Source of the DNA: Spirochaetota bacterium
Lineage (GTDB): Bacteria; Spirochaetota; UBA4802; UBA5550
Length of the DNA: 64,000 bases
Direction of reading: 5' to 3'
Assembly: GCA_963664815.2 (NCBI GenBank)
Contig: CAXXHB010000003.1
Coordinates: 1,600,001 to 1,664,000, forward strand
Both the position numbers and the translations under genes were made by a program. The notes under the pieces are model-generated. The model did no database searches. It saw only the letters and a program-made list of their open reading frames with translations, and was not told the DNA's origin. Positions 7,826 through 33,786 of this stretch are shown here, piece after piece (position 1 is the stretch's first letter; every line of letters begins with the position of its first letter).

Positions 7826-9142
7826 TTACTCGAGTTAGGCGTTTTTTGGACATAGCTACGCCACGAGTTTTAGTTTTTTATAAATGTCCCTCTTGGAGAC
7901 ACCCTTTTTATGCATTATAATCACTTGATCAACGTACTCCCGCTTCTTCATTATTTTGAAATACTGTCGAGATTTCCCAAGACTCTGTTCATTGTTAGCA
8001 ACTCTCAATGATTCAAGTAAAGCATACGCAGCAAATACAAGAGCACAGTATTTTTCTATTGCCTTCAGTTTCCTCATCTGGTATTGACTCATACCAAGAC
8101 GATCTTTACAATAAAGATATCCAACTTCAATATCCCAGCGAAAGCTGTAATATTTCAAGATGCCTTCATTATTCAAGTTCATATCCGTACTAAGGATGAA
8201 CATTCTAGATCCGTCCTTGACTCTCTTTGATATCAGTATAATTGCATTACCGATACCTTTCAGCCAGACTTCTATCTGTCTGACTTTGAAGGCTTCATCC
8301 TTTAATTTTACTTTCTCAAAGGATGAGTTTCTTAAGTTTTTCACATAAGCTGACAGCTTATGTTTTTTACCATGCTCTTTGAACTGGAATACTCTATTGC
8401 TCTTAAGCGCTCCTATAAGTTCAAATTCCCGGTCTTTTACAGCTTTTACGACTTTCTCCGATGTGTGCCAGCTATCTACTAAACAGTATATCTTATCTCC
8501 TGTAAAAGGTTCAAACTTATCTATCAATTCACATGCTATATCCGGTTTTGTTTTAAATACTTCTCCGGATTCAGTTGCCACTTACTCATTTAGATAAAAC
8601 CGGAAATCATATGGGAAAGATATATCCCCTGATCTATAATGACTTGTCACCAAGCTGTGATCATATACCGTTCTGCCTTTTGAATGAGAATAATGCCACC
8701 CGAGACTTTCTATCTTCTTCGGTTTTCCCGGCTTCTCTATCACAGTATCATCTATTATTAAAAAGCCTGTCCCGTTTTTCTTAGCGATACATTTTAAAAA
8801 ATTCCTGTTAACTCTTAAAAGATCTTTACAGGTCCAAGCTGTATCTCTTATAAACTTTATATCATTACTAACATCTCTTGTGTCAACCTGAATGGAGTTG
8901 ATACTTGAGATTGTATGACGACCATCATATTCTATTATCCCTTTCAGCATCTTAGTAAAATGCCTCATTTGCGGTTTTGAAAAAATTTCTTTCGCCGCTG
9001 TAAAATACTTGCCTTCTGTAATCTGTTGTTTATTTTTTTATTCATTAGAGTTTTTAAAATACTTTTCATAATGGGGTAAAAAATTAATACTATTTTTTGC
9101 CCCATTATCTTTTTCTTTTAAAAAAACGCCTAACTCAAGTAA
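7826..9142 (-). mobile_element. IS701-family-like (DDE) insertion sequence, ~1.3 kb
   Basis: 22-bp terminal inverted repeats with 1 mismatch: TTACTCGAGTTAGGCGTTTTTT (7826-7847) / AAAAAACGCCTAACTCAAGTAA (9121-9142), flanking a transposase; exact ends and target duplication are ambiguous by 2-3 bp. Confidence 0.88.
7856..9069 (-). pseudogene. Inactivated IS701-type DDE transposase
   Basis: IIDDTVIEK, LVDSW, RWDIE..Y..K motifs. ORFs 8582-8968 and 7856-8581 are in the same frame, split by one TAA (8582-8584). The N-terminus (ATG 9069) is frameshifted near 9010. Confidence 0.85.
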
Positions 9143-9289: not shown

Positions 9290-10243
9290 GTGCAGAAAAA
9301 TGGCAGTAAAAGTCCGAAGAACAAAAATCAGAATAAAATATGGGATAATATTTCGATAAAAGATCATCCTCTTGATGGTATGGGAAATCCTTCTTATAAA
9401 AAATATGATCCCATATTAAGTGTTTATAAATATTCAGCAGACTATAGGGATCCGGTTCTGGGGAAAATTGATAAATCAGAAAACCTGTTCAGCAAAAAAT
9501 ATAAGTGGAGAATGAAAGGGCTTAGTATAGATTCAAGATTTTTTGCTGTCTGGTCAAATGAGAAAATTTATAAAAACTATTTCAATTCACTTTATAAAAC
9601 AGCAAAAAGTATGCATAACAGGTATAGAGATAGTGATAGTGTTATGGCGGTTGAGCCGGAGGATTATGTTGCTATGACTATAGGTTATTTTATTAAAAGT
9701 ACAGAGAAGTGTCAGCTGGAATATAATAATCTTATAGATAAGATCGGCTATTATAGTCATTACCCCCTTGATGATACATATAAAAGTTCTGAAGAGATAG
9801 GCCTTGGTGTAATGAAAATGTATAATCAAAAGCTGAAGTCTAACTTCACGGATGCTCTGCGAAGACGAGGACCTGTGCCGCAGGGTAATATACTGAACAT
9901 TGTTAACTCCGACCAGTCGTTTACTGATTCCGTAATTTCAATCGAGCAGGAAGTCTCTTCGCTTCCTTACTTGAAAAAAAAAGGTTATGCCGGGGCTGTG
10001 TTTTATTATCTTGCACTTGGTTCCCTTTCCAAAAAGGAGATAGAAATCAGTGTTAAAGAAAAATTTCAGATAGCAGGAAATGATTTTAAATACTGCATTC
10101 AGCGGGCTGTCCATGAAATTAAAAGTGATATAATATACAGGATTTTATCTATTCAGAAGGAAATCTGTAATCATGGTGATATAGAAGTGCTGCTTATCAG
10201 AATTGGAGAGTATCTGAGTTTACAGTATGAAGGAGTTGCCTAA
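9290..10243 (+). CDS. Divergent ECF/sigma-70-like factor (putative)
   Basis: EPEDYVAMTIGYF (~region 2.2 DAEDLVQE), KSNFTDALRRR (~region 2.4 N..IDYLRR), AVFYYLALGSLSKKEI...KYCIQRAVHEIK (~region 4 HTH); GGAGG RBS, GTG start; motif resemblance only. Confidence 0.5.
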   Translation: MQKNGSKSPKNKNQNKIWDNISIKDHPLDGMGNPSYKKYDPILSVYKYSADYRDPVLGKIDKSENLFSKKYKWRMKGLSIDSRFFAVWSNEKIYKNYFNSLYKTAKSMHNRYRDSDSVMAVEPEDYVAMTIGYFIKSTEKCQLEYNNLIDKIGYYSHYPLDDTYKSSEEIGLGVMKMYNQKLKSNFTDALRRRGPVPQGNILNIVNSDQSFTDSVISIEQEVSSLPYLKKKGYAGAVFYYLALGSLSKKEIEISVKEKFQIAGNDFKYCIQRAVHEIKSDIIYRILSIQKEICNHGDIEVLLIRIGEYLSLQYEGVA

Positions 10244-11811
10244 TGGAAAGATATAATGAAGCTGTTGCATCACTTAAAGATACATTTCGAAATACCTTTT
10301 TTTCTGAATATGACCCTTTTAATGCGGGCGGCAGAGATCGTGAAATTATGGAAAGCTTCTACTCTGTTTTGAATAATTTTTTATCAGACATGAGTGTAAC
10401 GGGGAAAAAAGATCTTCTGGACCTGCTTGATAATTCGGAAGAGTTTTCATCTAATAATTCATTTGAGATGGATTTTGATCCGTACTTTATTCTTCAGCTT
10501 GCTGCTGACGGAAATCCCCTCTTTGATTCATTGCCTGATGAAACACTGCGCATGGTTGAGCAGCTGCTGAGATCTGAATCTGAATTTCTTGAAGATCTTT
10601 TTGTCTGTGTCGGTCTGAATAATGTGAATCTGCAGAATGAATATATGCTCCAGATGGCGTTGCCTTCATGGAGTGAAATAATGACGCGGATCTTTTTTGA
10701 AGAGAGGAATATTCTTGATGACCTTAGAGCTCCCGATTCAGTTGCGTCAATGGACCCTTCGGTGATTGTTTCTTTTTATCTTGATAGGGATTTTGATAAA
10801 GAAAAGTATAGTTCCTTTGATTTTTTTAAAGATAACGTTCTCAGGAGAGATTTTGAGAAGGCCGCATATATTATTCCGGGTATTTTTAATTTTATTGCCC
10901 AGAGAATTGCAGATCCGGAAAGCTTTTCTTCTTTCCCGGTTGATTTTAATATAATCAAAGAAGTTCAGCATTATATACTGCTCAAGAGTATTGTGGAGCT
11001 GCTTGTATCAGGATCACTTGCCACTGATGACGGCAAAGCCCTTCTTTCAAGGCTATACCTTATTTTTGCAGCATCTGCCGGAGTTAATGATGATAGCCCC
11101 AACTGGAGCTTTAATGCAGGACTGCTGGAAAAATTGTGTAATAATCCGGTAAGAATTGATTCTCTTAATTCGGTACCGTTTACAAGGATTAACAGGGTTG
11201 TTCTTAATTTTCTGACCTCCGTGGCGTATCTCTGTTCTGATGATGAGGGATTTATTAAATCATGTTCAAAACTTCCTGACAGATATGATGGGGTAGTCGA
11301 GTTGATGAATTCTCTGCATATGCAGGATATTACCAAAGAACGGGAGGCTGATTCTGTTCCGTATACTGCAAGGCTTTTTAATAATTTTACAGATGCAGTT
11401 TCGAGGTTTATGGAATCCGGGCTTCAGAGAGAGATGAAGGTTGTTGTTTTAAGGGAGCCTGCAGTAGCGGTGTTTGGTACTGTCCAGGTGCCGGAGAAAA
11501 AATACACAATAAGCGGAACAATAGGGGAATCCTCTTTCACCGCTAAAATTTCAACAGAACTGATAATGGATGAAAAAGCTATTATGCTTGAACTGGATTT
11601 TGATATTGATACTCCCGATCCGGACGGATATGAAGTTGCTTTATATATTAATTTTAAAGGTGTTAAGAAAAGAATTAACTCAAGGTTATTTAAGGGATCA
11701 GCCTTTCATCGGGTTTATAAGCTTGATCCTATGATTCGTATTTCCTATTCCCTTGAACTTTCCCTGACAGATGGAGAAGAATCCCTTATCCTTTTTTCAG
11801 CGGAGTACTGA
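10243..11811 (+). CDS. Acidic hypothetical protein, candidate anti-sigma / protease substrate
   Basis: TAATG overlap with the sigma-like gene; helical N-terminus and beta-rich ~110-aa C-terminus; function inferred from position only. Confidence 0.75.
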   Translation: MERYNEAVASLKDTFRNTFFSEYDPFNAGGRDREIMESFYSVLNNFLSDMSVTGKKDLLDLLDNSEEFSSNNSFEMDFDPYFILQLAADGNPLFDSLPDETLRMVEQLLRSESEFLEDLFVCVGLNNVNLQNEYMLQMALPSWSEIMTRIFFEERNILDDLRAPDSVASMDPSVIVSFYLDRDFDKEKYSSFDFFKDNVLRRDFEKAAYIIPGIFNFIAQRIADPESFSSFPVDFNIIKEVQHYILLKSIVELLVSGSLATDDGKALLSRLYLIFAASAGVNDDSPNWSFNAGLLEKLCNNPVRIDSLNSVPFTRINRVVLNFLTSVAYLCSDDEGFIKSCSKLPDRYDGVVELMNSLHMQDITKEREADSVPYTARLFNNFTDAVSRFMESGLQREMKVVVLREPAVAVFGTVQVPEKKYTISGTIGESSFTAKISTELIMDEKAIMLELDFDIDTPDPDGYEVALYINFKGVKKRINSRLFKGSAFHRVYKLDPMIRISYSLELSLTDGEESLILFSAEY

Positions 11812-11813
11812 AA

Positions 11814-14800
11814 ATGTTGGTGCTGCGGTTTAAAAAGAAGTCTGACAGAATCGATATTATCGAGTTTTATATTCATAATCAGGGAGATGAACTGAATTCT
11901 ACAGACAGTATAGATATATCAATGGGGGGCACCGGGTGGGCCGGTTATCTTGCTTCAATCTGGAAATGCAAACAGATTATTGAGGGGGCAGTTCTTTCCG
12001 GAAAATTTACTAAAGAGATTCTGAATAAAATGCTGCCGCAGTTTGAAGTGCGGAAGCTGTTTCCGCATCTTGCAGAGAGGAGCGATGGACCGCTCAGTGT
12101 CAGGGATATCTGGCTTAAAAGTGTAGTCTCATCAAACCAGCCCCAGAGAATGGTTCTTCAGGTTGATTCGGATACAGGAATGGTACCATGGGAGTATGGA
12201 GATCTTTCTGAAAATGAGTATTTTTTCAGCAGGCATATACTGACACGACTCCCTTCCGGCATATCTTATACAAAATTGAAGAAACTCGCCAGTTCTGATA
12301 ATATAAATTTTAATCGCGGAATAAGAATATTCCCTGTACTTGCAGATGTAGGGGAGGTAAAATATTTTTCTGAAACGAAAAAATTTATAGATAAGATGAC
12401 TTCTGATCTTGGACAGGAGTATTTTGATGATGACTATAATAATTCATACACCCTGTTTTTGAAAAGTTTCTGCAGTTATCCGGTTGTACATCTTATCTGT
12501 CATGGACCCGGACTTGAAAACAGCTCTAATGCGATTCAGGTAGACCATAGATTTATACCGGTCAGAGATTTTATTAATAACCTGATTGAGCAGTATGTTA
12601 TAAGGAATGAATTTCCCGCTCTTCTCATCCTTTCAGTTTGCGGAGGCGGTTCAGCTATAACTCCTGATCTGATAGCTGAACTCTTTGAAAGGACTTCTGT
12701 CAGTAATATCATTGTATCTTTTTTTTCAATTCCGGTTAATAATACTACTTTTGATTTCTATACAGAATTATACAGAAATATAATTCATAAAGGGATGGCT
12801 GTTTCAGAGGCCTTTCACAAGGCTGTCAATGACCCGTTTAATCCTATAGGAGCAATACACCAGCTCTGGGGAAACCCTGATGTAAAATTTACCCGCATGA
12901 CTGCTGTAGACCAAAATACTGCCGTGAAGGTTCATGATACTGCAACAGCATCGATCTCCGATGCTATAATGGCAAACAAGGTAATGGACCTTATGAAGTC
13001 AAACTCCTTTGACGAGGCATCTGCGGTTATTGACGGCATAAACGATGATGAGACGCAGCAGAAGCTTAGATCAATGAGCAGCAACCTTGAAGCGGATGTT
13101 GCAGAACTTCTGGATAAAGCCCGTTTATCGAGCAGGGATGTTTACACAAATATATTTAAGGAAGGGAGTATCATTGACGGTATTGCTGAATTGGGACTGT
13201 GGCCCGATGGAGAGATATATCACATTGCGTGCGGATTTTATGATTATATAAATAAGGAGAAAAGTATAAGGATCAGGATCCCGGAGGACCAGAGCAGCCA
13301 AAATATTGAACGCCTCAGCTCCCTTGTCAATTCAGACAGCTATAATTCGGCAGCAGGTCTTGAGAAATACTATTACTGTTCAGACTACAGGCTTTTCGGG
13401 GAGAATTTTTCAATATTTTATATCTGCGGCGAAATGCCCGTGGGTGAAAATATTAATTCAGATTCTTTGAAGGAGATTCTGCAGGGGATGTCCCCGGAAG
13501 AGAAAATAGGGATTGCTGTAAAAACCGCTTCTGATCTGTGCAGCGCAATGAATCTTTTTCATAAAAATGATCTGTATTTCCAGACGATTGAACCTTCAAA
13601 AGTATATATAAATCTGAACGGACCTTCTGCCGAGTCCATATATATTGCAGACGCTATGTTTTGTGCTGTCACGGAGGATAAAATAAGCGGCCTTCCTGAA
13701 AACGATGAATGTATATCTGATAGATTAATTGTTTCTAACATGATGGATGTTGCAGGGATAGTGTTTCATGATATTCTTGGTTATGAAGGAGACCTGGGGT
13801 CTCCGTTAAAACCGGGAGTAGCTCTGGTGATTGATGATCATCGCAATCTTATCCGCTGTTATTTTATGAATGAAGAAGGTTATGACAGGGTAATCTCTGA
13901 TAGAAGATTTCATGCATTACTTAAGCTTACTGACTGTAGAAAAGCGAGCAGATACCGGAGTGCGGGTGAAGCGGCTATAATCCTTAAAGGGGGGAATACG
14001 GTTTTTATTAATGAAATGAAAGAAACCGTTATGGCAGGTTCCCGGTTATTATATCTTATGGACAGATATGAAGATCCTGTTACTGTTGATGATATATGCA
14101 ATAATTTCGGGAGGACTGTGCTTCTTGATGAACTGCTGAAAAAAGGGTCGGATATGGCCTCTCCGAAGGTAGTAATAGTTAATGCGATGAACAGGCATGA
14201 TTTTTATCGTTGCCTTGAACCCTCTAAAACTTCCGGTGATCCATTTTTTATAGTTCTTCTTAAAAGTGGAATTAATATTATGATTCTTGATATTAACGAT
14301 GTGTTTGATGTCGATGAGAAAGCAGTGAGATACTATCATTTTTTTATGACATATATGAAAAGATATCTTGAACAGCCGTCGAGACCGTCTGTAGTAATGC
14401 TTTATTCTAACGCGGTTTACAGTTTTTTTAAAGATAAAAATCTGCTCAAGCATATGAAGATTTTATTTAATTCACCATATGATATTCATGATTATTATAG
14501 AGAAATTCACAATTCATCCCTGGCTTCCGAAATTCAGCTTGATGAAAATGAGATAAATGAAATTGCAGCGAATTGCATAGGACTGACATTACGCGAAGTC
14601 AAATACGCCATGGGTTATATTCTATCCTGCGATCTGATGAATTCAGTTTCGGGTGACGGTTTTAAGAGCTACCTGAATGAATACCGCATGAAAACAATGC
14701 TTTCAGGATCGAGGATTCTCAGGTTATATACTCCAAAGGATGATGTTTACGGGGGGTATCATGGTCTGGATGATTTCATAACTTCAGTCAGGATAAGTCT

Positions 14801-15539
14801 TGATTATAACTTCAGCATCAATTTCAAGTCATCTATTTTTACCGGGTTTTCCGGGACAGGGAAAAAATCCGCTGTGTCGTATCTGGTAAAAAGGCTGGAA
14901 ATCCCGGCTGTTTCGCTGGATATTTCGGAGATATTTGCAAACGGTTTAGACTCCAATCCAGTAGGCCTGCTAAGGTATGCTCTGGCACTTGTAAAACAGA
15001 TGCAGCCGTGTATATTGATAATTAACAGGTTTATAAAAGATATCATAGTTGCTTCAGAGAATTCATCAGCTCTGAAACTTATAATGGGGACTCTTCTCAC
15101 ATGGCTTCAGGATATCGGAAATACAAATATTCTGGTGTTTGCCCATGATTCTGTTAACAGTATAGCCGATGCAGAATCTCTTAATCATGAATTTACAAGA
15201 TCCGGACGATTTACGGAAAAATTTTTTTTTAATTACCCGTCTATTGACTCCGAAAAAGAGATTCTCGGATTATATGCCGGGTCTCTCGGTGTTAAGATAA
15301 GCGATGAAGAAGCAGTTGCCGTATTATCGGAAGAACAGATGTCCGGTTGTCTGACTCCTGCTGATATCCGTTATACAATGAATGAAACAGCGCTCAGGTA
15401 TATAAAGAATGAGAATGGTACAGTACCGGATCTTTTCAGGGGTGTTGTGAAGAGGGGGTTATATCTCAGGTCTGATAGAAATTATAATGCTGCACTGGCT
15501 GGAAGAATGAAAGATTCCGGATATACTATATTGAATTAA
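11814..15539 (+). CDS. CHAT (caspase/HetF-like) peptidase - pseudokinase - degenerate AAA+ fusion protein
   Basis: CHAT: VPWEY, VHLICHG (His230), LILSVC (Cys276), LWGNP. Kinase-like: LFHKNDLYFQTIEPSKVYI, YIADAM, SRYRSAGEA. AAA+: GFSGTGKK, ILIINRF (no DE), TRSGRF. Confidence 0.8.
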   Translation: MLVLRFKKKSDRIDIIEFYIHNQGDELNSTDSIDISMGGTGWAGYLASIWKCKQIIEGAVLSGKFTKEILNKMLPQFEVRKLFPHLAERSDGPLSVRDIWLKSVVSSNQPQRMVLQVDSDTGMVPWEYGDLSENEYFFSRHILTRLPSGISYTKLKKLASSDNINFNRGIRIFPVLADVGEVKYFSETKKFIDKMTSDLGQEYFDDDYNNSYTLFLKSFCSYPVVHLICHGPGLENSSNAIQVDHRFIPVRDFINNLIEQYVIRNEFPALLILSVCGGGSAITPDLIAELFERTSVSNIIVSFFSIPVNNTTFDFYTELYRNIIHKGMAVSEAFHKAVNDPFNPIGAIHQLWGNPDVKFTRMTAVDQNTAVKVHDTATASISDAIMANKVMDLMKSNSFDEASAVIDGINDDETQQKLRSMSSNLEADVAELLDKARLSSRDVYTNIFKEGSIIDGIAELGLWPDGEIYHIACGFYDYINKEKSIRIRIPEDQSSQNIERLSSLVNSDSYNSAAGLEKYYYCSDYRLFGENFSIFYICGEMPVGENINSDSLKEILQGMSPEEKIGIAVKTASDLCSAMNLFHKNDLYFQTIEPSKVYINLNGPSAESIYIADAMFCAVTEDKISGLPENDECISDRLIVSNMMDVAGIVFHDILGYEGDLGSPLKPGVALVIDDHRNLIRCYFMNEEGYDRVISDRRFHALLKLTDCRKASRYRSAGEAAIILKGGNTVFINEMKETVMAGSRLLYLMDRYEDPVTVDDICNNFGRTVLLDELLKKGSDMASPKVVIVNAMNRHDFYRCLEPSKTSGDPFFIVLLKSGINIMILDINDVFDVDEKAVRYYHFFMTYMKRYLEQPSRPSVVMLYSNAVYSFFKDKNLLKHMKILFNSPYDIHDYYREIHNSSLASEIQLDENEINEIAANCIGLTLREVKYAMGYILSCDLMNSVSGDGFKSYLNEYRMKTMLSGSRILRLYTPKDDVYGGYHGLDDFITSVRISLDYNFSINFKSSIFTGFSGTGKKSAVSYLVKRLEIPAVSLDISEIFANGLDSNPVGLLRYALALVKQMQPCILIINRFIKDIIVASENSSALKLIMGTLLTWLQDIGNTNILVFAHDSVNSIADAESLNHEFTRSGRFTEKFFFNYPSIDSEKEILGLYAGSLGVKISDEEAVAVLSEEQMSGCLTPADIRYTMNETALRYIKNENGTVPDLFRGVVKRGLYLRSDRNYNAALAGRMKDSGYTILN

Positions 15540-17402: not shown

Positions 17403-18242
17403 ATGGATAGCTGGAAATATAATTTATACCGGACAGCATTTTCCTCTATTTTTATGAGGGCTGATTATAATTTAGAATATGACAGCTACAGGTATTTTCT
17501 TGATACATTCGGGAGTCTGAACCATGAGATGTATCTGTTATTGTGGGATAACCTTCTCCGTTACGTATATTTAAAAGATGAAAAATATGATATGTTTCTT
17601 TATGGAGAACTTTCACCCGTTTCCTATTCATTAAAATGGCATATGGATTATCTTCAAAACCCTGAGAAAAAAACCAGATCCAGATGCCGGTTCAGAAAAA
17701 GGCGGAATCCCCCTTATATGGAAATTATGAATTCGATATCTGAAACTCCAAATGTAGTCGATTATTTTTTTATAAATTCTATCTTCAGGAAATCAGACTC
17801 TCAATTTATTAAAGATGTGCTATTAAGTAATGACAAGCCTGCAAAATCCCTGGTCCAGTTTATCCGGAATAATCGTCTTCTTATTGCAGGAACACCTGCT
17901 GATAATTATCTTAAAGAATATGAAGCATCTCTCAATGCCGGCAGAAAAGATTCAGATAAAAGGAAAGAAAAAAATAACAATAAATGTGAGGATGTGAATC
18001 ATCCGAAAGTTTATCTATACAATCCGCCCGATGTGAATAATATAAAACAGCTTGTTCAATCCGGTATGGCAACAGTATCTATTCAGGAGGCTTTTTCTGT
18101 TTTTATCTCTTCCCAAATCTTGAGCCTCGATAACTTTTTTAAAAATGATATTATTAAAATGTTTAATCCGGTTTATTTTCCCGAAACTGAAAAAAAATTT
18201 CTGAAACACTATGCTGTTTCAGCAGAAGTTTCGTCTAAGTAG
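17403..18242 (+). CDS. Hypothetical protein (operon member)
   Basis: 279-aa ORF 14 bp after the AAA+ gene, with AAGGA RBS. Confidence 0.75.
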   Translation: MDSWKYNLYRTAFSSIFMRADYNLEYDSYRYFLDTFGSLNHEMYLLLWDNLLRYVYLKDEKYDMFLYGELSPVSYSLKWHMDYLQNPEKKTRSRCRFRKRRNPPYMEIMNSISETPNVVDYFFINSIFRKSDSQFIKDVLLSNDKPAKSLVQFIRNNRLLIAGTPADNYLKEYEASLNAGRKDSDKRKEKNNNKCEDVNHPKVYLYNPPDVNNIKQLVQSGMATVSIQEAFSVFISSQILSLDNFFKNDIIKMFNPVYFPETEKKFLKHYAVSAEVSSK

Positions 18243-18316
18243 ATTTAATATAGGGTAAATATCCGGCTGTTCAGGATCAGGCCGGTTTGCAATGATAAAT
18301 GATTTAAGGGGGAATT

Positions 18317-18835
18317 ATGAGCGGCAGGATTACAATTTGCCTTCAGAAGAGCGTTACAAAAAGAAAATTTCGCGGAACCGTTGAATTTCCCGGAAATCTC
18401 TACTCGTCAATACTTGGTGACCTGATAAAAGAGGGTCTTCTTACAGAATGGAAAGATGGGGATTATGAGGGGAAACCCTGTAAAATTAAAGAAGTAACCC
18501 TTATGTATATGGAGAATGAACTCACAGCGCAGCTGATACTTCAGCGGGATCAGGATGGCTACAACATGAACATCAGATTTGATCAGCAGAAGATCGAAAT
18601 ATACGAAGAGTGGGAGAACCAGGCTGGAAGCAGTATTGAAGAAGCATTGCAGAAGGTCACAGCTGTTGAATCCGCCCTTATCGATTACGAGGTGCTTAAA
18701 TATTACCACAAGGACAGAATTGATGTGACCCTTAATGTAAATGAATTCTCCGATGATCTTGTTAAGATTAAAGTGAATGATAATTATGAAAACCGTTCCC
18801 AGAAGATAGAATATTATGCCGTGGAGAGGTATTAA
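18317..18835 (+). CDS. Hypothetical protein, resembles small FtsH-ternary-system component
   Basis: AAGGGGG RBS; abuts the next gene (TAA-ATG); N-terminus MSGRITICLQKSV resembles such families from recall. Confidence 0.75.
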   Translation: MSGRITICLQKSVTKRKFRGTVEFPGNLYSSILGDLIKEGLLTEWKDGDYEGKPCKIKEVTLMYMENELTAQLILQRDQDGYNMNIRFDQQKIEIYEEWENQAGSSIEEALQKVTAVESALIDYEVLKYYHKDRIDVTLNVNEFSDDLVKIKVNDNYENRSQKIEYYAVERY

Positions 18836-20533
18836 ATGCAGGATCTTCTTGAGGTAATAAAAAATGAATACAAAGCCGGATACAGGGCAGGTGTTGATGA
18901 ATTTTCTGATTTATTCTGGGACAGCGATGAGGAGAACAATCTCCATAATACTCATTTCCGGGTATTCAGAAAACAGATAGATTCAATTACTGAATCCCTT
19001 TTTAATAAAAAGAGTGTAGTGGTTTACTGTGACAGAAACCTTTCAAGACATATAGGCAGATGTCTGCGTGACAGGATAAAAGAGAAAAGCCGCATTTATG
19101 GCGGGGATAGCAGGCTCAACCCGATTGAATGCGGATTTCTAGAATATAACAGCAGCGCGAAAACAACATCTACAAGGGTAAGAGAATTTCTCATATCGGA
19201 GAAAATAGGTGCCGGCGAAACATGGATTGTATATAATTTTGACCTGATTTCAGTAAAAAATATCGGCGATTCATCTATTGATATAGATTTGTGTTTTAAT
19301 TTTCTTGAAAAAAAAAATCAGGGAGCCAAGCTTGTAGTATTTGTTGACCCGGATATTTGTACCCTTCCGAAATATTTTGAAAAACATTTTGATACGGTTT
19401 ATATTAATGGAATTTCATCCCCGGCATCTCTTCTCCCTGTGTTTACTTTTAAAGAGTTCCAGAAGATTGCATCAATAGAAAAAGGCAAATCATGGGATGA
19501 CGTTGAAATAGAAGACATTAATATTAACCCGGAGGTTCTATACCAGCTTTATAACTACCTTTCAGCATTTTCACCTGAAGAGATAAGGGTGATCCTTAAA
19601 ATGGAAAGGAAACCCGATGAAAGCTTTGTCGATTCGGTTAAAAGAAACAGAAACAGGTATCTCCATGATGTTATGGATCTTTATTCCGTAAGCAAGGATT
19701 TTAAAATCGAGGTTCCGTGGCTGAAAAAGGAAAAAGATCAGATTATAAATCTTATAAACTATTCACAGGTAAAGGTTCATGCAAATCCTCATAAAAAGAT
19801 AAGGGGTATAATCCTTTATGGCCCGCCGGGCAACTCAAAAACCACACTCATCAAGAGTATATGCCAGGATATAAATACAAACTATATTATAGTCAGTGCA
19901 TCTGATATAAAGAGCAGATATTTAGGCGATTCAGAGAAAGCTGTTAAGGATCTTTTCAGGAAAGCCGCCCAGGCTGCACCATGTATTCTTGTATTTGATG
20001 AGATGGAAGCGCTTTTCTTAAGCAGGGATATTCAGATGAGCAATCCATCAGGGGGTATGCTAGGGATTGTGAGCACGCTCCTTCAGGAGATGGACTCTAT
20101 TCAGAGCAGCGTTAATGTTTTTGTTATAGGAACTACCAATAAACTTGAAATGCTCGATAAAGCATTTCTCAGACCGGGAAGATTTGACCGGATAATGAAG
20201 ATAGACCATCCCCGGAGAAGTGATATCCCGGTGATTGTCGATTCGCTGCTGAGGATATACCTCGACGGAGGGGACCCGGAGGATACCGGCAGAATTTCTG
20301 AAAACCTTGTTAAAGTAATCCAGGCAAGGTGTACCGAAGCTGAATTGAAAAAAAAAGCAGCGTTTTCTATTGCTGATATTTCCCATATTATAAGAATGCT
20401 TGATATTGAACGTTTTAACGGTAATAAAGAAGAGATCATCAAACTTGTTTCTGCAATAGTTTATGACATTGATGAGGTCAGGGCTGATACGGTGTCATCA
20501 AAAACCGGCAGACCGGATGACAGCGTTTTTTAA
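18836..20533 (+). CDS. AAA+ ATPase, CDC48/FtsH-clade, no protease domain
   Basis: GIILYGPPGNSKT (variant Walker A), YLGDSE, LVFDEME, GTTNK, LRPGRFD; long N-terminal domain; no HEXXH or TM. Confidence 0.9.
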   Translation: MQDLLEVIKNEYKAGYRAGVDEFSDLFWDSDEENNLHNTHFRVFRKQIDSITESLFNKKSVVVYCDRNLSRHIGRCLRDRIKEKSRIYGGDSRLNPIECGFLEYNSSAKTTSTRVREFLISEKIGAGETWIVYNFDLISVKNIGDSSIDIDLCFNFLEKKNQGAKLVVFVDPDICTLPKYFEKHFDTVYINGISSPASLLPVFTFKEFQKIASIEKGKSWDDVEIEDININPEVLYQLYNYLSAFSPEEIRVILKMERKPDESFVDSVKRNRNRYLHDVMDLYSVSKDFKIEVPWLKKEKDQIINLINYSQVKVHANPHKKIRGIILYGPPGNSKTTLIKSICQDINTNYIIVSASDIKSRYLGDSEKAVKDLFRKAAQAAPCILVFDEMEALFLSRDIQMSNPSGGMLGIVSTLLQEMDSIQSSVNVFVIGTTNKLEMLDKAFLRPGRFDRIMKIDHPRRSDIPVIVDSLLRIYLDGGDPEDTGRISENLVKVIQARCTEAELKKKAAFSIADISHIIRMLDIERFNGNKEEIIKLVSAIVYDIDEVRADTVSSKTGRPDDSVF

Positions 20534-20548
20534 AAAGGAGGATTTTGT

Positions 20549-20854
20549 ATGATAAATCAGGATGCAAAGATAGTTTTCAGTATAAAGGGTTTTAATGAAA
20601 CCGGAAAGCTGGATGACCGGGAATTTTCAATCGAAGTGGATATTGATTGTGAATTAAAACATAAAGAGGGTATGCCAGATGCTGAACATGGGAATATGCA
20701 TGATCTGATTGTAAGTTATGTAAAAGACTTCATTATGGAGCCCGGGCCCGGGCCGTACCAGCGTCGTTCGCTTGATGTACATGACAGAGATAGTAAAGAG
20801 GCGGAGAAAATAAGCCAGCCGGATGTTTTACGGGTAGAAGTAACAGAGCAATAA
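20549..20854 (+). CDS. Small hypothetical protein between AAA+ and MoxR
   Basis: AGGAGG RBS; acidic; MPDAEHGNMHD His motif. Confidence 0.8.
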   Translation: MINQDAKIVFSIKGFNETGKLDDREFSIEVDIDCELKHKEGMPDAEHGNMHDLIVSYVKDFIMEPGPGPYQRRSLDVHDRDSKEAEKISQPDVLRVEVTEQ

Positions 20855-20870
20855 AAGACAGAGGTAATAT

Positions 20871-22112
20871 ATGAATCAGAGACTATCACAGAAGAAATTT
20901 AAAGAGGACCTACATAATAATATTACCGGAGGGGTTCTGGACCGGATAAAAAATATCAGAATGGAGATGAGGCAGCATTTCTGGGGGAGCAGATACGAAG
21001 AAATTATTGATAATATTATAATTGCAGCAATGGCCGGTCAGCCGATCCTCCTGATCGGGAAACCGGGAGTTGCTAAATCTCTTATAATGACAACCTTTTT
21101 TTCTCTCTTAGGACTTAATAAAACATATCAGGACGAAAAAGGGGAATCCCTGCCAGGGGCCAAGTATTTTCAATATCTTCTTCATAGCTTTACAATGCCG
21201 GATGAAATTCTTGGAGTAATCAAGATAGGAAAGTTTTTAGAGGAGAGCAAATTTGTAAGGGAGAGAGAGGGTTCCCTGAATGATCAATATGTGAAAGCCG
21301 CGTTTCTTGATGAAGTTTTTAATGCCAATTCTACCATACTGAATATGCTTCTTAGCATAATTAATGAGAAGGAGTTTTATGAAGGGGGGGTAGCTCACAG
21401 GAGCAACCTGTTTATAATTGCCGGTGCCGCTAACCGGGTTCCAAGAGAGCCAGAATTACATGCTTTTTTTGACCGGTTTCCCGTAAGGCTTATTGTTGAC
21501 CTTAACCTGAGTGAAAAAGTGAGCCTTGAAGAGTATAATAGAAGGTTGTCATTATCGTCAGACACTCTGCAGGATGAGGATCAGATAGACTTTGATCAGT
21601 CAGAGGAGATTTCGTTTGATGATCCGGTCTTTTTCAGAATAATAGATCAGGGTATAGAGAATCTGAAAAGACGATCATACTCTATCAAAGGTATAAAGTA
21701 TGACAGGTATCTCACCGGAGAGAATAGTATGCCGACTGTGGAGGATTTTGAAACGGTGCATAACTATATCGTTTCACATTATTCTGCATCGGACGGGAAA
21801 ACTTTCACGGATGACGCAAAAAAAGCCATGGCAAGGCTTGTAGAGGATCTCAGCGAAACAGATACCTGTAATATTAATGGCCGAAATATTGTAAAACTCT
21901 ATATGCTTTCAGCCGCTTCTGCAATTTTCAGGGCGGCTGTTGAAGGTCCGGGTGATGATGGATTCTCTCAGCCGCAAATAACTGTTCAGGATCTTTCCGT
22001 ATTCAGGAATATATGGAATTCAGATAATAATGAAATAATATCAATGCATTTCGGGGCGGTGGATAGTATATTGAACGAATATGACAGTGATTATAAAGGT
22101 TACAATGGATAA
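20871..22112 (+). CDS. MoxR/RavA-family AAA+ ATPase
   Basis: LLIGKPGVAKS, YFQYLLHSFTMPDEILG, FLDEVFNANSTILNMLL, GAAN..P, FFDRF. Confidence 0.92.
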   Translation: MNQRLSQKKFKEDLHNNITGGVLDRIKNIRMEMRQHFWGSRYEEIIDNIIIAAMAGQPILLIGKPGVAKSLIMTTFFSLLGLNKTYQDEKGESLPGAKYFQYLLHSFTMPDEILGVIKIGKFLEESKFVREREGSLNDQYVKAAFLDEVFNANSTILNMLLSIINEKEFYEGGVAHRSNLFIIAGAANRVPREPELHAFFDRFPVRLIVDLNLSEKVSLEEYNRRLSLSSDTLQDEDQIDFDQSEEISFDDPVFFRIIDQGIENLKRRSYSIKGIKYDRYLTGENSMPTVEDFETVHNYIVSHYSASDGKTFTDDAKKAMARLVEDLSETDTCNINGRNIVKLYMLSAASAIFRAAVEGPGDDGFSQPQITVQDLSVFRNIWNSDNNEIISMHFGAVDSILNEYDSDYKGYNG

Positions 22113-23520
22113 AGAATTCATATCTGAATTATACGATTATGCCGAATTTTCTCCTATTCTGAGGGAAATAGACAGGATATATTATACTTATTCAGATTAT
22201 ATTACTGATTCGAGTTCTCTCGGGGATGATATTCTTAAAATTCATTCTATAGAACTGGAGGATGCTTTTATTGTAGTTTATTTATTTTTAGTTTTAATAC
22301 TTTTACAATTTGATCCTGCAGGAAATCTAAAATACAGATTTAAAAGAATTGCTTCCGAGTTTTCCGGAACAATATGCTTTAACTTTGCTAAAAGGCTTGA
22401 TGAGTTTACCGGTTTTTCAGCTCCATCTGTAAAGGATTTCCGAAATTTTCCGGAAATCCTACCGGCTGTAATGGGGATTCTTTTCAATCTCCGGAGTCAA
22501 ACTGATTTATCTCTTTTTGTTGAATCAATACTCAGGGAGAGGTTTTATTTTTTTTCATCTATTTATCTTGATGACAGCAAAAGGCCGATGGTTAGAGGGA
22601 TAGCTGCAAAGTTGTACTCGGCTTATATCAACGATAAAATGAGAGTGTATGAATTATTTGACGGCCCGGAAGGCAGTTACGTGAAGAAACCGGTCAGCAG
22701 GTTTAAACAGATTAATGTAAATGAATTTGATGTTTACAGTTATTACGGAAGTATGCCTATACCTTCTGAATTCTGCAGGATGAAGGCCGGTAAATATTTT
22801 AAACCGGATAAAATTCTGAAAAAACATAACAATCCTATAGCGGGTTACAAAGATGATCCATTCAGAGATATCGGGATTGTTGCAAAGTACGATTATTTAG
22901 CAGGACGGATGATAAAGCTCGGTGAGTCGTTTGATAAAATAATTGAGAGGAGTTTCAATCTCAGATTTGTCATAATACATCCTGTTGCCGGACTTTTTCA
23001 AAGAGAACTGCTTGATATTATACCTCTTGTTTTTACTCATTTTTTTTCTGAATACGTTCCTGATGTAACTTCCATAAATCTTAAAATAATCAGGGGAAAC
23101 AGCATTGATGGTTTTTCAAAATATGAAATGGAGTTTGATACCATCCCTCTCATAGACTGTTGTTTTCTTTCTGATCATTACATGAATTCCTATTTTCTTC
23201 ATAATATGAATGAGGAACCGATGGACAGGATTACTTTAAAAAAATTTTTTGAAGAAAAAAGTTATATAGTAATAAACTCTCCGGATAGCCCCGGGCTGGA
23301 GCAGAATATGATGAAAAGTCTGTTAAATCCTTTATTCTGTATGGGGAATATTGAACTGCATAATGATGATTCATTGCTGTTTAAATCTGACAATATGTAC
23401 CGGGAGGAATTGCTTAAATTTTTTGACAGTCATTCACAGTCATTCACAGCCGGTTTTTATGATATCCTTCGTCATGTGTCTTCCAGAATTATTCGTGCGG
23501 GGGAAATGGAATATGTATAA
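22105..23520 (+). CDS. Hypothetical protein, candidate degenerate vWA/ViaA-like MoxR partner
   Basis: ATG 22105 overlaps the MoxR stop (ATGGATAA); position typical of MoxR vWA partners; no DxSxS MIDAS visible. Confidence 0.7.
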   Translation: MDKEFISELYDYAEFSPILREIDRIYYTYSDYITDSSSLGDDILKIHSIELEDAFIVVYLFLVLILLQFDPAGNLKYRFKRIASEFSGTICFNFAKRLDEFTGFSAPSVKDFRNFPEILPAVMGILFNLRSQTDLSLFVESILRERFYFFSSIYLDDSKRPMVRGIAAKLYSAYINDKMRVYELFDGPEGSYVKKPVSRFKQINVNEFDVYSYYGSMPIPSEFCRMKAGKYFKPDKILKKHNNPIAGYKDDPFRDIGIVAKYDYLAGRMIKLGESFDKIIERSFNLRFVIIHPVAGLFQRELLDIIPLVFTHFFSEYVPDVTSINLKIIRGNSIDGFSKYEMEFDTIPLIDCCFLSDHYMNSYFLHNMNEEPMDRITLKKFFEEKSYIVINSPDSPGLEQNMMKSLLNPLFCMGNIELHNDDSLLFKSDNMYREELLKFFDSHSQSFTAGFYDILRHVSSRIIRAGEMEYV

Positions 23521-25378
23521 ATATTACAAAACATCTAATTTGATGTTTACATTGAGGCAGCTTGAAAGGATTCCGGTCCAGGATATATCGTATAACGAAG
23601 AGTATTCGGTGTTCAGGGTCAAGTATACAAAAAGTTTCCGGCCGTCTTTTTATCTATTGTCTTATGAAGATGGTATATACTCTTCCATGAAAATAAAATT
23701 TTCTCCTGTCGGGGAATACCACGAAATAATACACCAGGAGATAGATTTCAGTGGAAGGAAGAAATACGGATGGGACGGAGGCTCCGTGCTTATTCTTTTC
23801 AGGAAGAATAAGCACGGAAAAAATGACGATGGGATCATCAGGATTCTTGAAAAAGTTGTGGCGAAACAGGATATTATTATAAAATCGTCATTTCTTAATA
23901 ATGAGATGTGGGACTTTGGTCTGCTTATTGATAATTTGAAGGATTACCTGTTTATTAAACTGATTCATGAATCGGGTGTCGCGGACGTTTTTGAAAGATG
24001 TGATAACTATGTTTTCTTTAAGGACATGCAGGGATATTATCCGAAATGTTTCACCCCCTGGGACAGGATTATTATTCCAAGAACTGATTCTGAACTTGCA
24101 GTGCCTGACATGCTTCTGATGATGGATGGTGATTCAAAGGTAACAGGCTGCATGATTCCATCAAAAAATTTTGAAACAGTTTTTACGAATCTAAAGGTAT
24201 ATCTTGACAGGGTCTCATTTGAAAAAACAGATATTGCGGAGTCAGAAAAAATTTCGCTTACCATAAGGCAGCCGGCTTTTAAACCTGTAACTGAATTTAA
24301 ATCAGAGATAATAAAACAGATTTCATACGTAAACAGTTTAAGGGAACAGCTTAGACGGCAGGAGATAAAACTCCGGAATATGGAGTCTAATCTATCTGTT
24401 GTACAGGATCAGGTTACCACACCTGCAGGATTGCTTAAGGTTACTATACCACAAAAACCTTCCAGATTATGGCAATCGGTTTTTAATAAAATTCTGATGT
24501 CGCTTCCAGGGCGTAATTTTTCATCTCAGGTTTTCAGAAAGAAAGAATCGTATGAAATTATTGTTATGGATAATGGCTGTATAGACCCTGATATGAAAAA
24601 TCCGGATGGTGTACTGGATGGGATGACTCTTCCTGATTATAGAGAAAGCCTCTATTCGCTGGATATGAGACTTTTTAATGAAACAGGACTTTCGTTGTTT
24701 TTTCCGAAGTATGATGGATCAGGCAGACCGTTTGTTATAGGGAGATTCAATAATGATCTTGCTCCTATGCTTTTCAGATCGTTGATACAGAAGTTAAGCC
24801 GGGAACTGGACTCCGGAGAAGAACAGCAGGAGGGTATGGCGGATACTATTGAGGTGCATAATCAGACTGGTTTTATGATTATTGGTGATGAAAACAGTGA
24901 TGATGAAAGCAGAGATTATTTAACGGAAGAATATTATTATATTATAGATAGCGGTATGGATGCGGATGATCCGCTGATTCATATATCACGCTACAGCAGG
25001 CATGATCTTCTTCCATTTGATAGCTTGTGTGACAGGTTTATGATTAATGCAAATATAAAACGGATTGAATTGGATAACTCAGATCATAATGACAGGATAG
25101 AGATATTCGGTGAAGGTGATTTTATTAAGTCATTTCAGGACAGGCTATATGGCAGGGATAATGAAGCTCTATTTAATAACCTTAATGAGAGGAAAAAGAC
25201 TTTTACTGATGATAAACAGGTTTTTGAAAAATCTATCAATGACTTTATTAAAGACAGGGACAGGTTTAACAGTATTACCTCTTCAGCCGGGAAAGCATTG
25301 AAAAAGATGCAGAAAATAATAGATAACGTATCAGGGATGGAGTCGGGAAGAAAAGTGGAAGGAGATGGAAAGGAATAA
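23513..25378 (+). CDS. Hypothetical protein with coiled-coil segments (operon member)
   Basis: Start reassigned to ATG 23513, overlapping the upstream stop (ATGTATAA); heptad-like LREQLRRQEIKLRNMESNL and C-terminus. Confidence 0.78.
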   Translation: MYKYYKTSNLMFTLRQLERIPVQDISYNEEYSVFRVKYTKSFRPSFYLLSYEDGIYSSMKIKFSPVGEYHEIIHQEIDFSGRKKYGWDGGSVLILFRKNKHGKNDDGIIRILEKVVAKQDIIIKSSFLNNEMWDFGLLIDNLKDYLFIKLIHESGVADVFERCDNYVFFKDMQGYYPKCFTPWDRIIIPRTDSELAVPDMLLMMDGDSKVTGCMIPSKNFETVFTNLKVYLDRVSFEKTDIAESEKISLTIRQPAFKPVTEFKSEIIKQISYVNSLREQLRRQEIKLRNMESNLSVVQDQVTTPAGLLKVTIPQKPSRLWQSVFNKILMSLPGRNFSSQVFRKKESYEIIVMDNGCIDPDMKNPDGVLDGMTLPDYRESLYSLDMRLFNETGLSLFFPKYDGSGRPFVIGRFNNDLAPMLFRSLIQKLSRELDSGEEQQEGMADTIEVHNQTGFMIIGDENSDDESRDYLTEEYYYIIDSGMDADDPLIHISRYSRHDLLPFDSLCDRFMINANIKRIELDNSDHNDRIEIFGEGDFIKSFQDRLYGRDNEALFNNLNERKKTFTDDKQVFEKSINDFIKDRDRFNSITSSAGKALKKMQKIIDNVSGMESGRKVEGDGKE

Positions 25379-25380
25379 TT

Positions 25381-25635
25381 ATGCCTCATAGTAATGAACC
25401 GGTTTATTATGACAGAAGCCGTATCGCCTCTATGTTGGATGAAGCGGCTGAGATAACTAATGTTCTGGTCTCTGACGCTGATATTATGTTGGATCAGTTT
25501 AATAGAATAACTAATAGAAAAAAGCCGTGGTATGAGGGTAATATACAGGGAGAGGGGGAATCCGGTTTGTTTGAAAATATACTGAGTTTTATTAAAAAGA
25601 TGCTGTTTCCGGTTAAATCCGGAGGTGGAAAATAA
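25381..25635 (+). CDS. Small hypothetical protein
   Basis: AAGGA RBS; 2 bp after the previous stop; its end carries the GGAGG RBS of the next gene. Confidence 0.7.
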   Translation: MPHSNEPVYYDRSRIASMLDEAAEITNVLVSDADIMLDQFNRITNRKKPWYEGNIQGEGESGLFENILSFIKKMLFPVKSGGGK

Positions 25636-25640
25636 TAATT

Positions 25641-32788: not shown

Positions 32789-33753
32789 ATGTAAAAGAAA
32801 TGGCAGCCTTCTTTATACCATCAATACTCACTATTGCAGTATTGATGTATCTGCATGATACCGGTACGGCATGCTGGATTGTTTTTCTGGTGTCTTCGTT
32901 TTTTACTCTTGTTATGCTGAAGATGATATATGATGATGACTCCAGCTTTCTTCGTTTATCGGTCTTTGCCGGTTTTCTTTTTTTTAATCTTTCTTCAGAA
33001 TATTTCGTTATGCTTGATCCTGACAGGATACTTGTTTTTACATCGGTAATATTTTTTATGGTTCAGTTTATCCTTATATCTTTATCAGTTCTCAGACATG
33101 ATTATAAGGAGATGGAGACACATCGTGAAGCGGTCAGGAATATCATTGATAAACCTGTGAAAACTGTTGATCAGGGTTCTATTCCTGAACCTGAACTTTT
33201 TTTTATTCATATCCCCGGTTCTGCGTTGCTGATACTGATATTTCTTGTTATAGGGGGGGTGAGCACAACACCTCTGAGAATTATTGCAGGAAATATTGTT
33301 TACATTTATATATTCCGTTTTACCGGAAAAATGGATGGTTCATCAGAATTCTATACTTACGGGAAAATGATTCCCGCCGCCGGTTTATACCTGATGTTAT
33401 TTCTAGTGTCATATTTTATTTTTTTCACTACAGGCCTGGCAATCTCCGGTTCGGATAATACAATAGTTCATATAATCGTCATTCTTCTATCATCCTTCAT
33501 TTCAGCTCTGACATGCGCATTTGTTAATTATATTTCAGTGCGTTTTTCCGGCGGGGATGGTATGCTAAAGCTTATAATTAATCATGCGATTGCCATTTCA
33601 TTTATTATAGCTATACCGGTTCTAAAGGATTTGTTGTTCTTTGAATTTAAACTGTTATGGATATTGTCATTTATCCCGTTTCTGGTTTTATGCGGTTATA
33701 TTGCAGACCATATTGTAAAATCCAGACAGGAAAAAAAATCTGTATCTGAATAG
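32785..33753 (+). CDS. Polytopic membrane protein (~10 TM)
   Basis: Highly hydrophobic; ATGA overlap with the upstream gene. Confidence 0.8.
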   Translation: MNVKEMAAFFIPSILTIAVLMYLHDTGTACWIVFLVSSFFTLVMLKMIYDDDSSFLRLSVFAGFLFFNLSSEYFVMLDPDRILVFTSVIFFMVQFILISLSVLRHDYKEMETHREAVRNIIDKPVKTVDQGSIPEPELFFIHIPGSALLILIFLVIGGVSTTPLRIIAGNIVYIYIFRFTGKMDGSSEFYTYGKMIPAAGLYLMLFLVSYFIFFTTGLAISGSDNTIVHIIVILLSSFISALTCAFVNYISVRFSGGDGMLKLIINHAIAISFIIAIPVLKDLLFFEFKLLWILSFIPFLVLCGYIADHIVKSRQEKKSVSE

Positions 33754-33786
33754 CATATTTGAATTTTAAGATAGGAGGGATATTTA

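Follow-up and report, generated by a model that had tools for sequence, protein, structure and literature searches.

A rare spirochaetal fusion gene joins a predicted CHAT protease and a probable kinase-like domain to a degenerate copy of the AAA+ ATPase encoded next to it

The DNA analysed here is a 64,000-nucleotide stretch of a Spirochaetota bacterium genome (assembly GCA_963664815.2, contig CAXXHB010000003.1, positions 1,600,001 to 1,664,000; hereafter the window, within which all positions are counted), and its subject is the gene P0001 together with its neighbour P0004. Both genes belong to an island of 16 co-directional, tightly spaced open reading frames (ORFs) extending over 26 kb of the plus strand (9290-35602), in which P0003, P0002, P0001 and P0004 come first. 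P0001 (11814..15539, plus strand) is a single open frame encoding 1241 amino acids, in which a predicted CHAT protease, a kinase-like domain and a degenerate AAA+ module are fused. Its start codon lies 2 nt past the stop of the preceding ORF and is preceded, at a distance of 9 nt, by GGAG. P0004 (15553..17388, plus strand) begins 13 nt downstream of P0001, with a strong ribosome-binding site (AAGGAG, 7 nt before the ATG), and encodes an intact Ycf46-type AAA+ ATPase of 611 amino acids with Walker A GGGKS and Walker B IDEIE. An earlier, sequence-only reading had described P0001 as a three-domain fusion of an active-looking CHAT protease, a kinase without catalytic residues and a degenerate AAA+. 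The coordinates and strand given in that reading are right and all eight of the motif strings it quoted are present in the protein. Its description of the architecture holds in so far as two domains can be identified firmly and one with probability; however, the AAA module is larger than had been noted (residues 722-1211) and there are more parts than three, namely an N-terminal region (residues 1-104), a linker (residues 356-440) and an N-domain of the AAA module (residues 722-1000).

Relatives of P0001 are few. A word-indexed search of 5.8 billion clusters returned P0006 as the sole other relative (1246 amino acids, 40% identity over 100% of the length), and when residues 1-730 of P0001 were compared exhaustively with 1.84 billion representatives by HMMER, three proteins came up at E <= 0.001, which are P0001, P0006 and P0007 (1221 amino acids, 23% identity to P0001 overall). 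P0006 and P0007 are known from Logan assemblies only, on one contig each. Residues 1-730 were not found in the genomes of 60 relatives, 7 of them from the same genus, and pattern scans of genome and metagenome contigs, based on a two-sequence alignment, found no relative of P0001. These counts refer to sequence relatives of P0001, and unrelated proteins combining CHAT, kinase and AAA domains may exist. The P0001 gene is real and conserved, though very rare. Identity between P0001 and P0007 is highest in the CHAT domain (32%) and the AAA core (31%) and amounts to 14-19% elsewhere, a distribution that fits a device in which the protease and the ring contact are the essential parts. The N-terminal region (residues 1-104, 11814..12125) has no Pfam match and no assignable family, its model has a predicted local distance difference test (pLDDT) score below 50, and it is 39% identical to P0006 and 16% to P0007. 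The linker (residues 356-440, 12879..13133) is gap-rich, with 31% identity to P0006 and 14% to P0007. Within 12984-13489 the gene is matched at more than 98% identity by a few short contigs, namely two 151-nt contigs on 12984-13316 in a sludge metatranscriptome (X2) and a 269-nt contig in a wastewater run labelled RNA-Seq (X1, possibly an RNA run). Since carry-over of DNA is possible in both, these contigs are taken as evidence neither for transcription nor for a habitat.

The CHAT domain, which has the caspase fold of clan CD, occupies about residues 105-355 of P0001 (12126..12878) and was recognised by profile alignment (hhalign) and by two structure searches (Foldseek and VIA). Its motif strings are VHLICHG (residues 225-231) and LILSVC (residues 271-276), with the codon of His230 at 12501-12503 and that of Cys276 at 12639-12641. 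For comparison we used a profile of 29 CHAT domains from genomes of the same phylum, representing 29 of 30 loci (L025, which has an internal stop, was left out). An alignment of the three family members matched this profile locally with a probability of 96.3% (E 1.8e-9, 206 columns) and globally with 98.1% (E 5.8e-13, 241 columns). With the domain alone the hhalign score was 63.1, compared with 25.1 for the best of 25 column shuffles and 14.7 for the reversed sequence. In this register V-H-L-x-x-H230-G falls on I-H-f-a-t-H-G of the CHAT profile and S-V-C276-G on L-S-A-C, and the typical start of a CHAT domain is also aligned, VDS..VPWEY of P0001 lying on iiPDg.L..lPFE. His226, His230 and Cys276 are invariant in all three family members. 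The claim that the catalytic motifs are intact is therefore borne out, with His230 and Cys276 on the positions of the catalytic dyad.

Structure comparison points to the same family. With the AlphaFold model of the CHAT part, Foldseek gave four matches at E <= 0.001, three SAVED-CHAT chains and one separase, followed by further separases, Csx29, DdvA, legumains and caspases. VIA, an aligner independent of Foldseek, was run against 48,161 chains, and its top 10 matches were all clan CD peptidases with Z scores of 9.8 to 7.3: the SAVED-CHAT structure 8tl0 (9.8), separases (9.6-7.8), gingipains (8.2 and 7.3), Csx29 (8.0) and DdvA (7.4). ESM Atlas features of this part score 0.96 to CHAT clusters. 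On these grounds P0001 can be firmly assigned an N-terminal CHAT domain of the caspase fold that keeps its His/Cys dyad, and is predicted to be a protease.

The middle domain (residues 441-721, 13134..13976) is a probable protein-kinase-like domain without catalytic residues, and contains the kinase-landmark strings FQTIEPSK (residues 589-596), DAM (residues 613-615) and SRYRSAGEA (residues 712-720). Against a profile of 30 Pkinase domains, the whole family alignment gave a local hhalign probability of 34.0% (E 4.3e-4), and the middle domain alone gave 63.4% (E 6.9e-5, score 39.1); global alignment gave 39-55% over 243 columns. Locally, the aligned stretch begins at the hinge, takes in the catalytic loop and ends with the DFG motif, IIHRDIKPxNIlI being placed over LYFQTIEPSKVYI and DFG over DAM. 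The global alignment is collinear across all 257 profile positions, with the landmarks of subdomains II, III, VIb, VII, IX and XI in order: IRIR488IP coincides with the VAIK strand, E499 is close to the alphaC glutamate, D645 falls on the aspartate of subdomain IX, and K..RY.SA.EA on the arginine of subdomain XI. In this register the beta3 lysine is replaced by Arg488 (valine in P0007) and the asparagine of the catalytic loop by lysine. HRD becomes FQT in P0001, and its aspartate is a threonine or serine, but an aspartate in P0007. The alphaC glutamate and the DFG aspartate (Asp613) are invariant in all three members. The register that the sequence-only reading had proposed for HRD, DFG and subdomain XI was thus reproduced; however, the kinase fold itself is probable only.

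The likeness to kinases may alternatively have arisen by chance in an unrelated alpha+beta domain, which we consider unlikely though it deserves to be weighed first. Pfam kinase families do not match residues 436-730 of P0001 even at E <= 10, nor P0006 and P0007 at E <= 1, and the hhalign probabilities are just 34-63%. The AlphaFold model of the kinase part has a pLDDT of 38.4, and Foldseek, with a best E of 0.8, listed no kinase for it; the order of predicted strands and helices in this model is weakly compatible with a kinase. Among the ten sub-significant PDB matches of the middle domain, nine are versions of the one kinase PknB (which counts once), in the right register at E 0.36-0.44; they are a slight hint of a kinase, with poor E values. 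The lack of family matches, the modest probabilities and the uninformative model weigh against a kinase fold. On the other side, the hhalign score of 39.1 is about twice that of the best of 25 shuffles (20.1) and of the reversed control (19.9), and cross-controls, in which other parts of P0001 were compared with the kinase profile and the middle domain with the CHAT profile, gave probabilities of at most 2.1%. The collinear global alignment with its six landmarks in order also speaks against chance, and ESM Atlas features independently indicate Pkinase clusters (0.96, with 188-205 shared features). Taken together, residues 441-721 quite likely have a kinase fold, and if that is right the domain is probably a pseudokinase. 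Structure prediction, which had been proposed as a check on the fusion, was thus informative for one domain out of two: the CHAT model gave CHAT and separase matches, whereas the model of the kinase part was uninformative.

The C-terminal part of P0001 is an AAA module composed of an N-domain (residues 722-1000, 13977..14813), which in the hhalign match corresponds to the N-terminal half of P0004-family proteins, and a classical AAA core in degenerate form, together with its lid (residues 1001-1241, 14814..15539), recognised by Pfam, by PDB matches and by its motifs. Pfam PF00004 matches residues 1008-1140 at 28.7 bits, above its cut-off of 21.2. Among solved chains, those of Rpt2 and AFG3L2 are nearest, and the best matches are to Rpt, FtsH and AFG3L2, with CDC48-like matches as well. 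Residues 722-1211 align to positions 12-508 of the 568-position profile of the P0004 family with a probability of 99.7% (hhalign, E 6.6e-27, 462 columns), a match which spans N-domain, AAA core and lid, and the hidden Markov model (HMM) of this family covers residues 731-1197 of P0001. The AAA module of P0001 can accordingly be described with firm confidence, as far as sequence comparison goes, as a full-length, catalytically degenerate, paralogue-like copy of the Ycf46-type ATPase P0004.

The degeneration concerns the motifs for ATP turnover. P0001 carries GFSGTGKK (residues 1011-1018) at the Walker A site, ILIINRF (residues 1067-1073) at the Walker B site and TRSGRF (residues 1128-1133) in the second region of homology (SRH). 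Where the P0004 family has GxGKS in Walker A, P0001 has GTGKK, P0006 GTGKR and P0007 GTDPA; where it has WIDE in Walker B, the three read IINR, VIDR and WIDG. The patterns GxxxxGK[ST] and hhhhDE are therefore absent, the Ser/Thr of Walker A and the Glu of Walker B being gone in all three members. The Walker A lysine is kept in P0001 and P0006, and P0007 additionally lacks the Gly-Lys pair. The SRH, LRKGRFD in the family, is HEFTRSGRF in P0001 and P0006 and HEFTRDGRF in P0007, so that HEFTRxGRF with its two arginines is invariant in all three. In AAA+ proteins the SRH arginines act in trans on the neighbouring subunit. The dead module is thus without the residues for ATP hydrolysis and, in one member, also without those for ATP binding; because Walker A of P0007 is GTDPA, nucleotide binding is not a feature of the whole fusion family. 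For the sensor-1 asparagine of P0001 the BLAST and hhalign alignments disagree. No STAND NTPase module of the NB-ARC or NACHT type was found in P0001, the sole NTPase signal of which is classical AAA, and from its sequence the module belongs to the classical clade. Two further proposals of the earlier reading, a degenerate AAA+ that retains its arginine finger and a classical AAA+ in place of a STAND NTPase, agree with these results and with the matches to Rpt, FtsH, AFG3L2 and the Ycf46-type family.

The P0004 family is widespread and carries the name SpoVK/Ycf46/Vps4 at the Joint Genome Institute (JGI); P0004 is 33-39% identical to hundreds of proteins of about 540 amino acids and matches phrog_8638 at E 9e-86. 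Its closest relatives form a small subclade consisting of P0008 (93% identity), P0009 (55%), P0010 (43%), P0011 (38%) and P0012 (35%). P0009 and P0012 lie on single contigs of 21,098 and 19,202 bases, the sizes of the sole contigs that carry P0006 and P0007. Each fusion gene therefore appears to share its contig with an intact P0004 orthologue, in all three cases, which for P0006 and P0007 is deduced from the equal contig sizes. A quickly built tree groups the fusion modules together (support 99) and puts the partners into a second clade (support 90), and the two clades branch in congruent order. That the dead AAA module copies the ATPase of the next gene, and that P0004 orthologues appear to accompany all three family members, are points absent from the sequence-only reading.

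The wider Ycf46-type family includes at least 594 loci in other genomes. At 80 of these loci neither a second family module (0/80) nor a CHAT match (0/80) was found within 8 kb, and divergent CHAT domains may have been missed near family loci because the CHAT HMM found P0001 only. As a positive control, the family HMM detects the dead modules of P0001 (E 1e-24), P0006 (4e-29) and P0007 (5e-11). Judged by these 80 loci, the arrangement of fusion and partner is limited to the small subclade and is not general to the Ycf46-type family. P0004 and P0009-P0012 share long insertions in the N-domain (alignment columns about 60-290) without counterpart in the general family. These insertions could be the docking place for the fusion protein.

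The genes around this pair are largely orphans. Upstream of P0001, P0003 (317 amino acids) and P0002 (522 amino acids) occupy 9290..11811, with no family assignable to either, and the ORFs overlap or abut, which suggests translational coupling. P0002 had no homologue in the sequence search; a search of PDB sequences gave no match for P0002, for the 479-amino-acid ORF or for the 1791-amino-acid ORF described below. The rest of the island (17403..35602, plus strand) contains a third AAA ATPase, a bpMoxR ATPase, large orphan ORFs and an NrdG-like radical-SAM protein. The third classical AAA ATPase (18836..20533, 565 amino acids) is intact and flanked by small orphan ORFs; its Walker A reads GPPGNSKT, with serine where glycine is usual before the lysine, and the DE of its Walker B and its RPGRFD are intact. 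The bpMoxR ATPase (20871..22112) matches PF20030 with 123 bits (E 1e-35), and the two ORFs that follow it (479 and 675 amino acids, to 25378) showed no vWA or propeller domain and no PDB or Pfam match. The 1791-amino-acid ORF (27413..32788) is an orphan without a match in Pfam, NCBIfam, PADLOC, PHROGs or PDB sequences. Across the island, 11 of the 16 ORFs have no significant match in Pfam, NCBIfam, PADLOC or PHROGs. PADLOC found nothing for P0001 and no known defence system in the island; family searches of neighbouring ORFs revealed no CRISPR or cyclase genes near P0001, and Pfam-type searches no serine protease in the island.

The last gene of the island encodes a radical-SAM protein (34964..35602) that is NrdG-like, matches Fer4_12 and lies below the NrdG equivalog cut-off. 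It is homologous to radical-SAM genes of other genomes (best 32% identity, E 1e-28), and in 37 of 80 loci (L067-L146) such a gene immediately precedes, in the same orientation, a Ycf46-type AAA gene. Radical-SAM and AAA genes form a conserved gene pair. Other recurring neighbours at Ycf46-type loci are HHH_3 proteins, DUF1257 and, directly downstream in 14 loci, an SF1 helicase of ~1140 amino acids.

Two abutting ORFs of 241 and 128 amino acids on the minus strand (7856..8968), immediately upstream of the island, together make up a split DDE transposase, which probably represents a frameshifted, broken insertion sequence (IS). Between this transposase and the first island gene there is a hairpin (9068-9108) whose 17-bp stem is accompanied by a T run. 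Promoter and terminator scans remained at chance level (60 promoter-like sites, 57 expected). The island does not stand out by its GC content (0.376 vs 0.362). The DNA of both flanks has almost no match in five genomes of the same genus, so synteny gave no borders for the island. The IS-flanked, orphan-rich accessory setting and the bpMoxR gene suggest a conflict or defence role for the island. What defines the bpMoxR family is that its members are partners of vWA and beta-propeller proteins in conflict systems (Pfam PF20030 description; passages of PMC7159879), and according to the same passages MoxR-centred conflict systems use caspase-like and inactive-kinase modules, which also favours such a role.

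How the fusion protein and its neighbour might work together can be put into one scheme, to which we assign a probability of about 45%: P0001 would be the protease-bearing subunit of a two-gene AAA+ machine, in which it forms a mixed ring with P0004. The dead module, unable to hydrolyse ATP, would yet fit into the ring and lend its arginine fingers to the intact P0004 subunits, which would supply ATP hydrolysis in trans. In the mixed ring the CHAT domain and the pseudokinase would both be held on the N-terminal side of an unfoldase that is active, with the pseudokinase acting as a ligand sensor or a substrate-docking sensor. Two routes of activation can be envisaged. In the first, CHAT domains would be brought near each other by ring assembly or by the ATP state; in the second, substrate captured by the pseudokinase would be presented by an ATP-driven movement. 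The protease so triggered would then cut its target. The first route has a precedent in a SAVED-CHAT protease that is activated by oligomerisation, as summarised in 10.1101/2023.06.23.546230.

Several observations weigh against this scheme, in addition to those given above for the kinase fold. Pfam CHAT (PF12770) is not matched by whole P0001 at E <= 0.01. With the fragment 181-385 it is the sole match and stays below the cut-off (18.2 bits against a gathering score of 24, E 0.0018); P0006 reaches 12.8 bits (E 0.079) and P0007 has no match. The AlphaFold model of the CHAT part is of low confidence (pLDDT 44.5), as is that of the kinase part, because the family offers just three sequences; for the same reason the invariance of residues is weak statistics. 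The co-occurrence of P0006 with P0009 and of P0007 with P0012 is deduced from equal contig sizes alone. In the quick tree the branches leading to the fusion modules and to the third AAA are very long, which leaves the placement of the fusion clade and its origin from P0004 undecided. No vWA or beta-propeller partner of bpMoxR was found in the downstream ORFs at E <= 5, and as these ORFs are orphans divergent versions are possible. On the two intact ATPases PADLOC gave generic AAA matches only (IetA, TRIP13 and, for the third AAA, PDC-S01). Lastly, classical AAA proteins carry their N-terminal additions at the entry face of the ring, so that a degradation chamber like that of FtsH or Lon is unlikely.

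A different division of labour between the two proteins, which seems improbable to us though not strained, is control of the toxin-antitoxin kind. The CHAT protease would be a toxin held in check by P0004 as antitoxin or remodeller, the dead AAA would be the handle for P0004, and an invader that blocks or titrates P0004 would free the protease. The tight coupling of the P0001 and P0004 genes accords with this, and there is a model for it in IetAS, which PMC13069673 describes as a serine-protease toxin with an ATPase antitoxin whose anti-phage mechanism is unknown. Weak IetA matches exist for P0004 (E 6e-17) and for the third AAA (E 2e-25), but their scores of 59.9 and 78.2 bits compare with an NCBIfam cut-off of 510 bits, and any classical AAA fits such a match. 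The protease here, moreover, is a cysteine protease of the CHAT type and not a subtilisin-type IetS.

P0001 might also act alone, as the sequence-only reading had supposed, its dead AAA forming a homo-oligomeric, non-hydrolysing ring, perhaps nucleotide-switched, that activates the CHAT domains by proximity, with P0004 as a separate enzyme. That reading cast the two dead enzymes as sensor and oligomerisation scaffolds, roles that are supposed and that would be shifted to the mixed ring in the scheme above. Conservation of the ring-forming core and of the SRH arginines, as well as the Walker A lysine of P0001 and P0006, which leaves nucleotide binding possible, would allow this, and the activation by oligomerisation reported for SAVED-CHAT (10.1101/2023.06.23.546230) is in line with it. 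However, P0007 is without the Walker A Gly-Lys, conserved arginine fingers would be pointless in a ring without active sites, and an intact paralogue-like ATPase appears to accompany all three members. For the last of these reasons an all-dead ring is less likely than a mixed ring, and we regard the stand-alone protein as decidedly unlikely.

MoxR and classical AAA proteins are typically assembly chaperones. The island might on that account be no immunity device at all, its protease maturing or quality-controlling island products (e.g. the 1791-amino-acid orphan or P0002/P0003) and its three AAA ATPases and MoxR assembling a large structure; this we hold to be just as unlikely, for while the 16 co-directional, tightly spaced genes, 11 of them without significant database match, and the absence of any PADLOC-recognised defence system would suit it, accessory genes of the conflict type fit better to the adjoining broken IS, to a P0001 N-terminal part (residues 1-730) that was not found in 60 relatives including seven same-genus genomes, and to a bpMoxR family defined from conflict systems (Pfam description; passages of PMC7159879).

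Comparison with described systems places P0001 beside several of them and inside none. The best structural match of its CHAT domain is SAVED-CHAT, which is associated with type III CRISPR and CBASS (8tl0; Foldseek E 8e-5, VIA Z 9.8), and both proteins combine a CHAT protease with a sensor and an oligomerisation module, which are putative in P0001. The SAVED domain, however, binds cyclic oligoadenylate and forms filaments, whereas P0001 has a kinase-like domain and a dead classical AAA+. With IetAS the locus shares the plan of a two-gene unit made of a classical AAA ATPase and a protease; but IetS is a serine protease on its own polypeptide (PMC13069673), and the cysteine CHAT domain of P0001 is fused to the dead AAA. 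P0001 matches no PADLOC or NCBIfam family, and neither an IetA equivalog nor an IetS was recognised. The MoxR-vWA ternary conflict systems (Kaur et al. 2020, PMC7159879) come close in another way, as the array of genes to which P0001 belongs also contains a bpMoxR gene, 5 kb further downstream. Passages of that paper describe fusions of caspase-like peptidases and inactive kinase domains in these systems, and a subtype to which a classical AAA+ (FtsH) is added. In contrast, P0001 is not fused to vWA, VMAP or iSTAND, and neither vWA nor propeller domains were detected in the ORFs downstream of the bpMoxR gene. Like the apoptosome, the STAND-caspase and the STAND-CHAT fusions, P0001 couples an NTPase oligomerisation module to a caspase-fold protease; unlike them, it has an NTPase of the classical AAA type, predicted to be dead, with a live, paralogue-like partner beside it. 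Within the Ycf46/SpoVK-type family, P0004 is a full-length member and residues 722-1211 of P0001 are a degenerate copy. A literature search retrieved no paper combining 'CHAT domain', 'pseudokinase' and 'AAA', and nothing relevant on Ycf46 or on a CHAT protease with an AAA+. Judged by its domains, P0001 would work like the NTPase-coupled caspase-fold proteases (SAVED-CHAT, STAND-caspase, Craspase) and the pairs of the IetAS type while being a member of none, because it is without a SAVED, STAND, TPR or CRISPR part, the IetA thresholds are missed and no vWA was found for the MoxR.

A bolder extension of the mixed-ring scheme, which we offer as a doubtful possibility, is that the two genes encode a caspase-activating platform built on a hetero-oligomeric classical AAA+ ring. 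A live Ycf46-type ATPase would drive the ring, the remaining subunits of which would be pseudo-ATPases that each carry a pseudokinase sensor and a CHAT protease, and proteolysis would be switched on by a ligand of the pseudokinase or by ATP-driven remodelling. Such a platform would resemble the apoptosome and yet have evolved separately from STAND NTPases.

NTPase-coupled caspase-fold proteases recur in prokaryotic immunity and in eukaryotic cell death, and in the known cases the coupling is made through STAND NTPases, SAVED or TPR sensors, or CRISPR effectors. In P0001 the part that couples is a dead version of a classical AAA+ unfoldase, the live counterpart of which is encoded next to it, and a probable pseudokinase lies between protease and AAA module. 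With just three proteins in 1.84 billion representatives, the family has little direct biological reach, and what makes it valuable is the mechanism. If the mixed ring is true, it would represent a novel way to aim or trigger a caspase-like protease, would assign a clear purpose to a bacterial pseudo-ATPase and pseudokinase, and would provide the first functional handle on the widespread, uncharacterised Ycf46-type AAA+ family.

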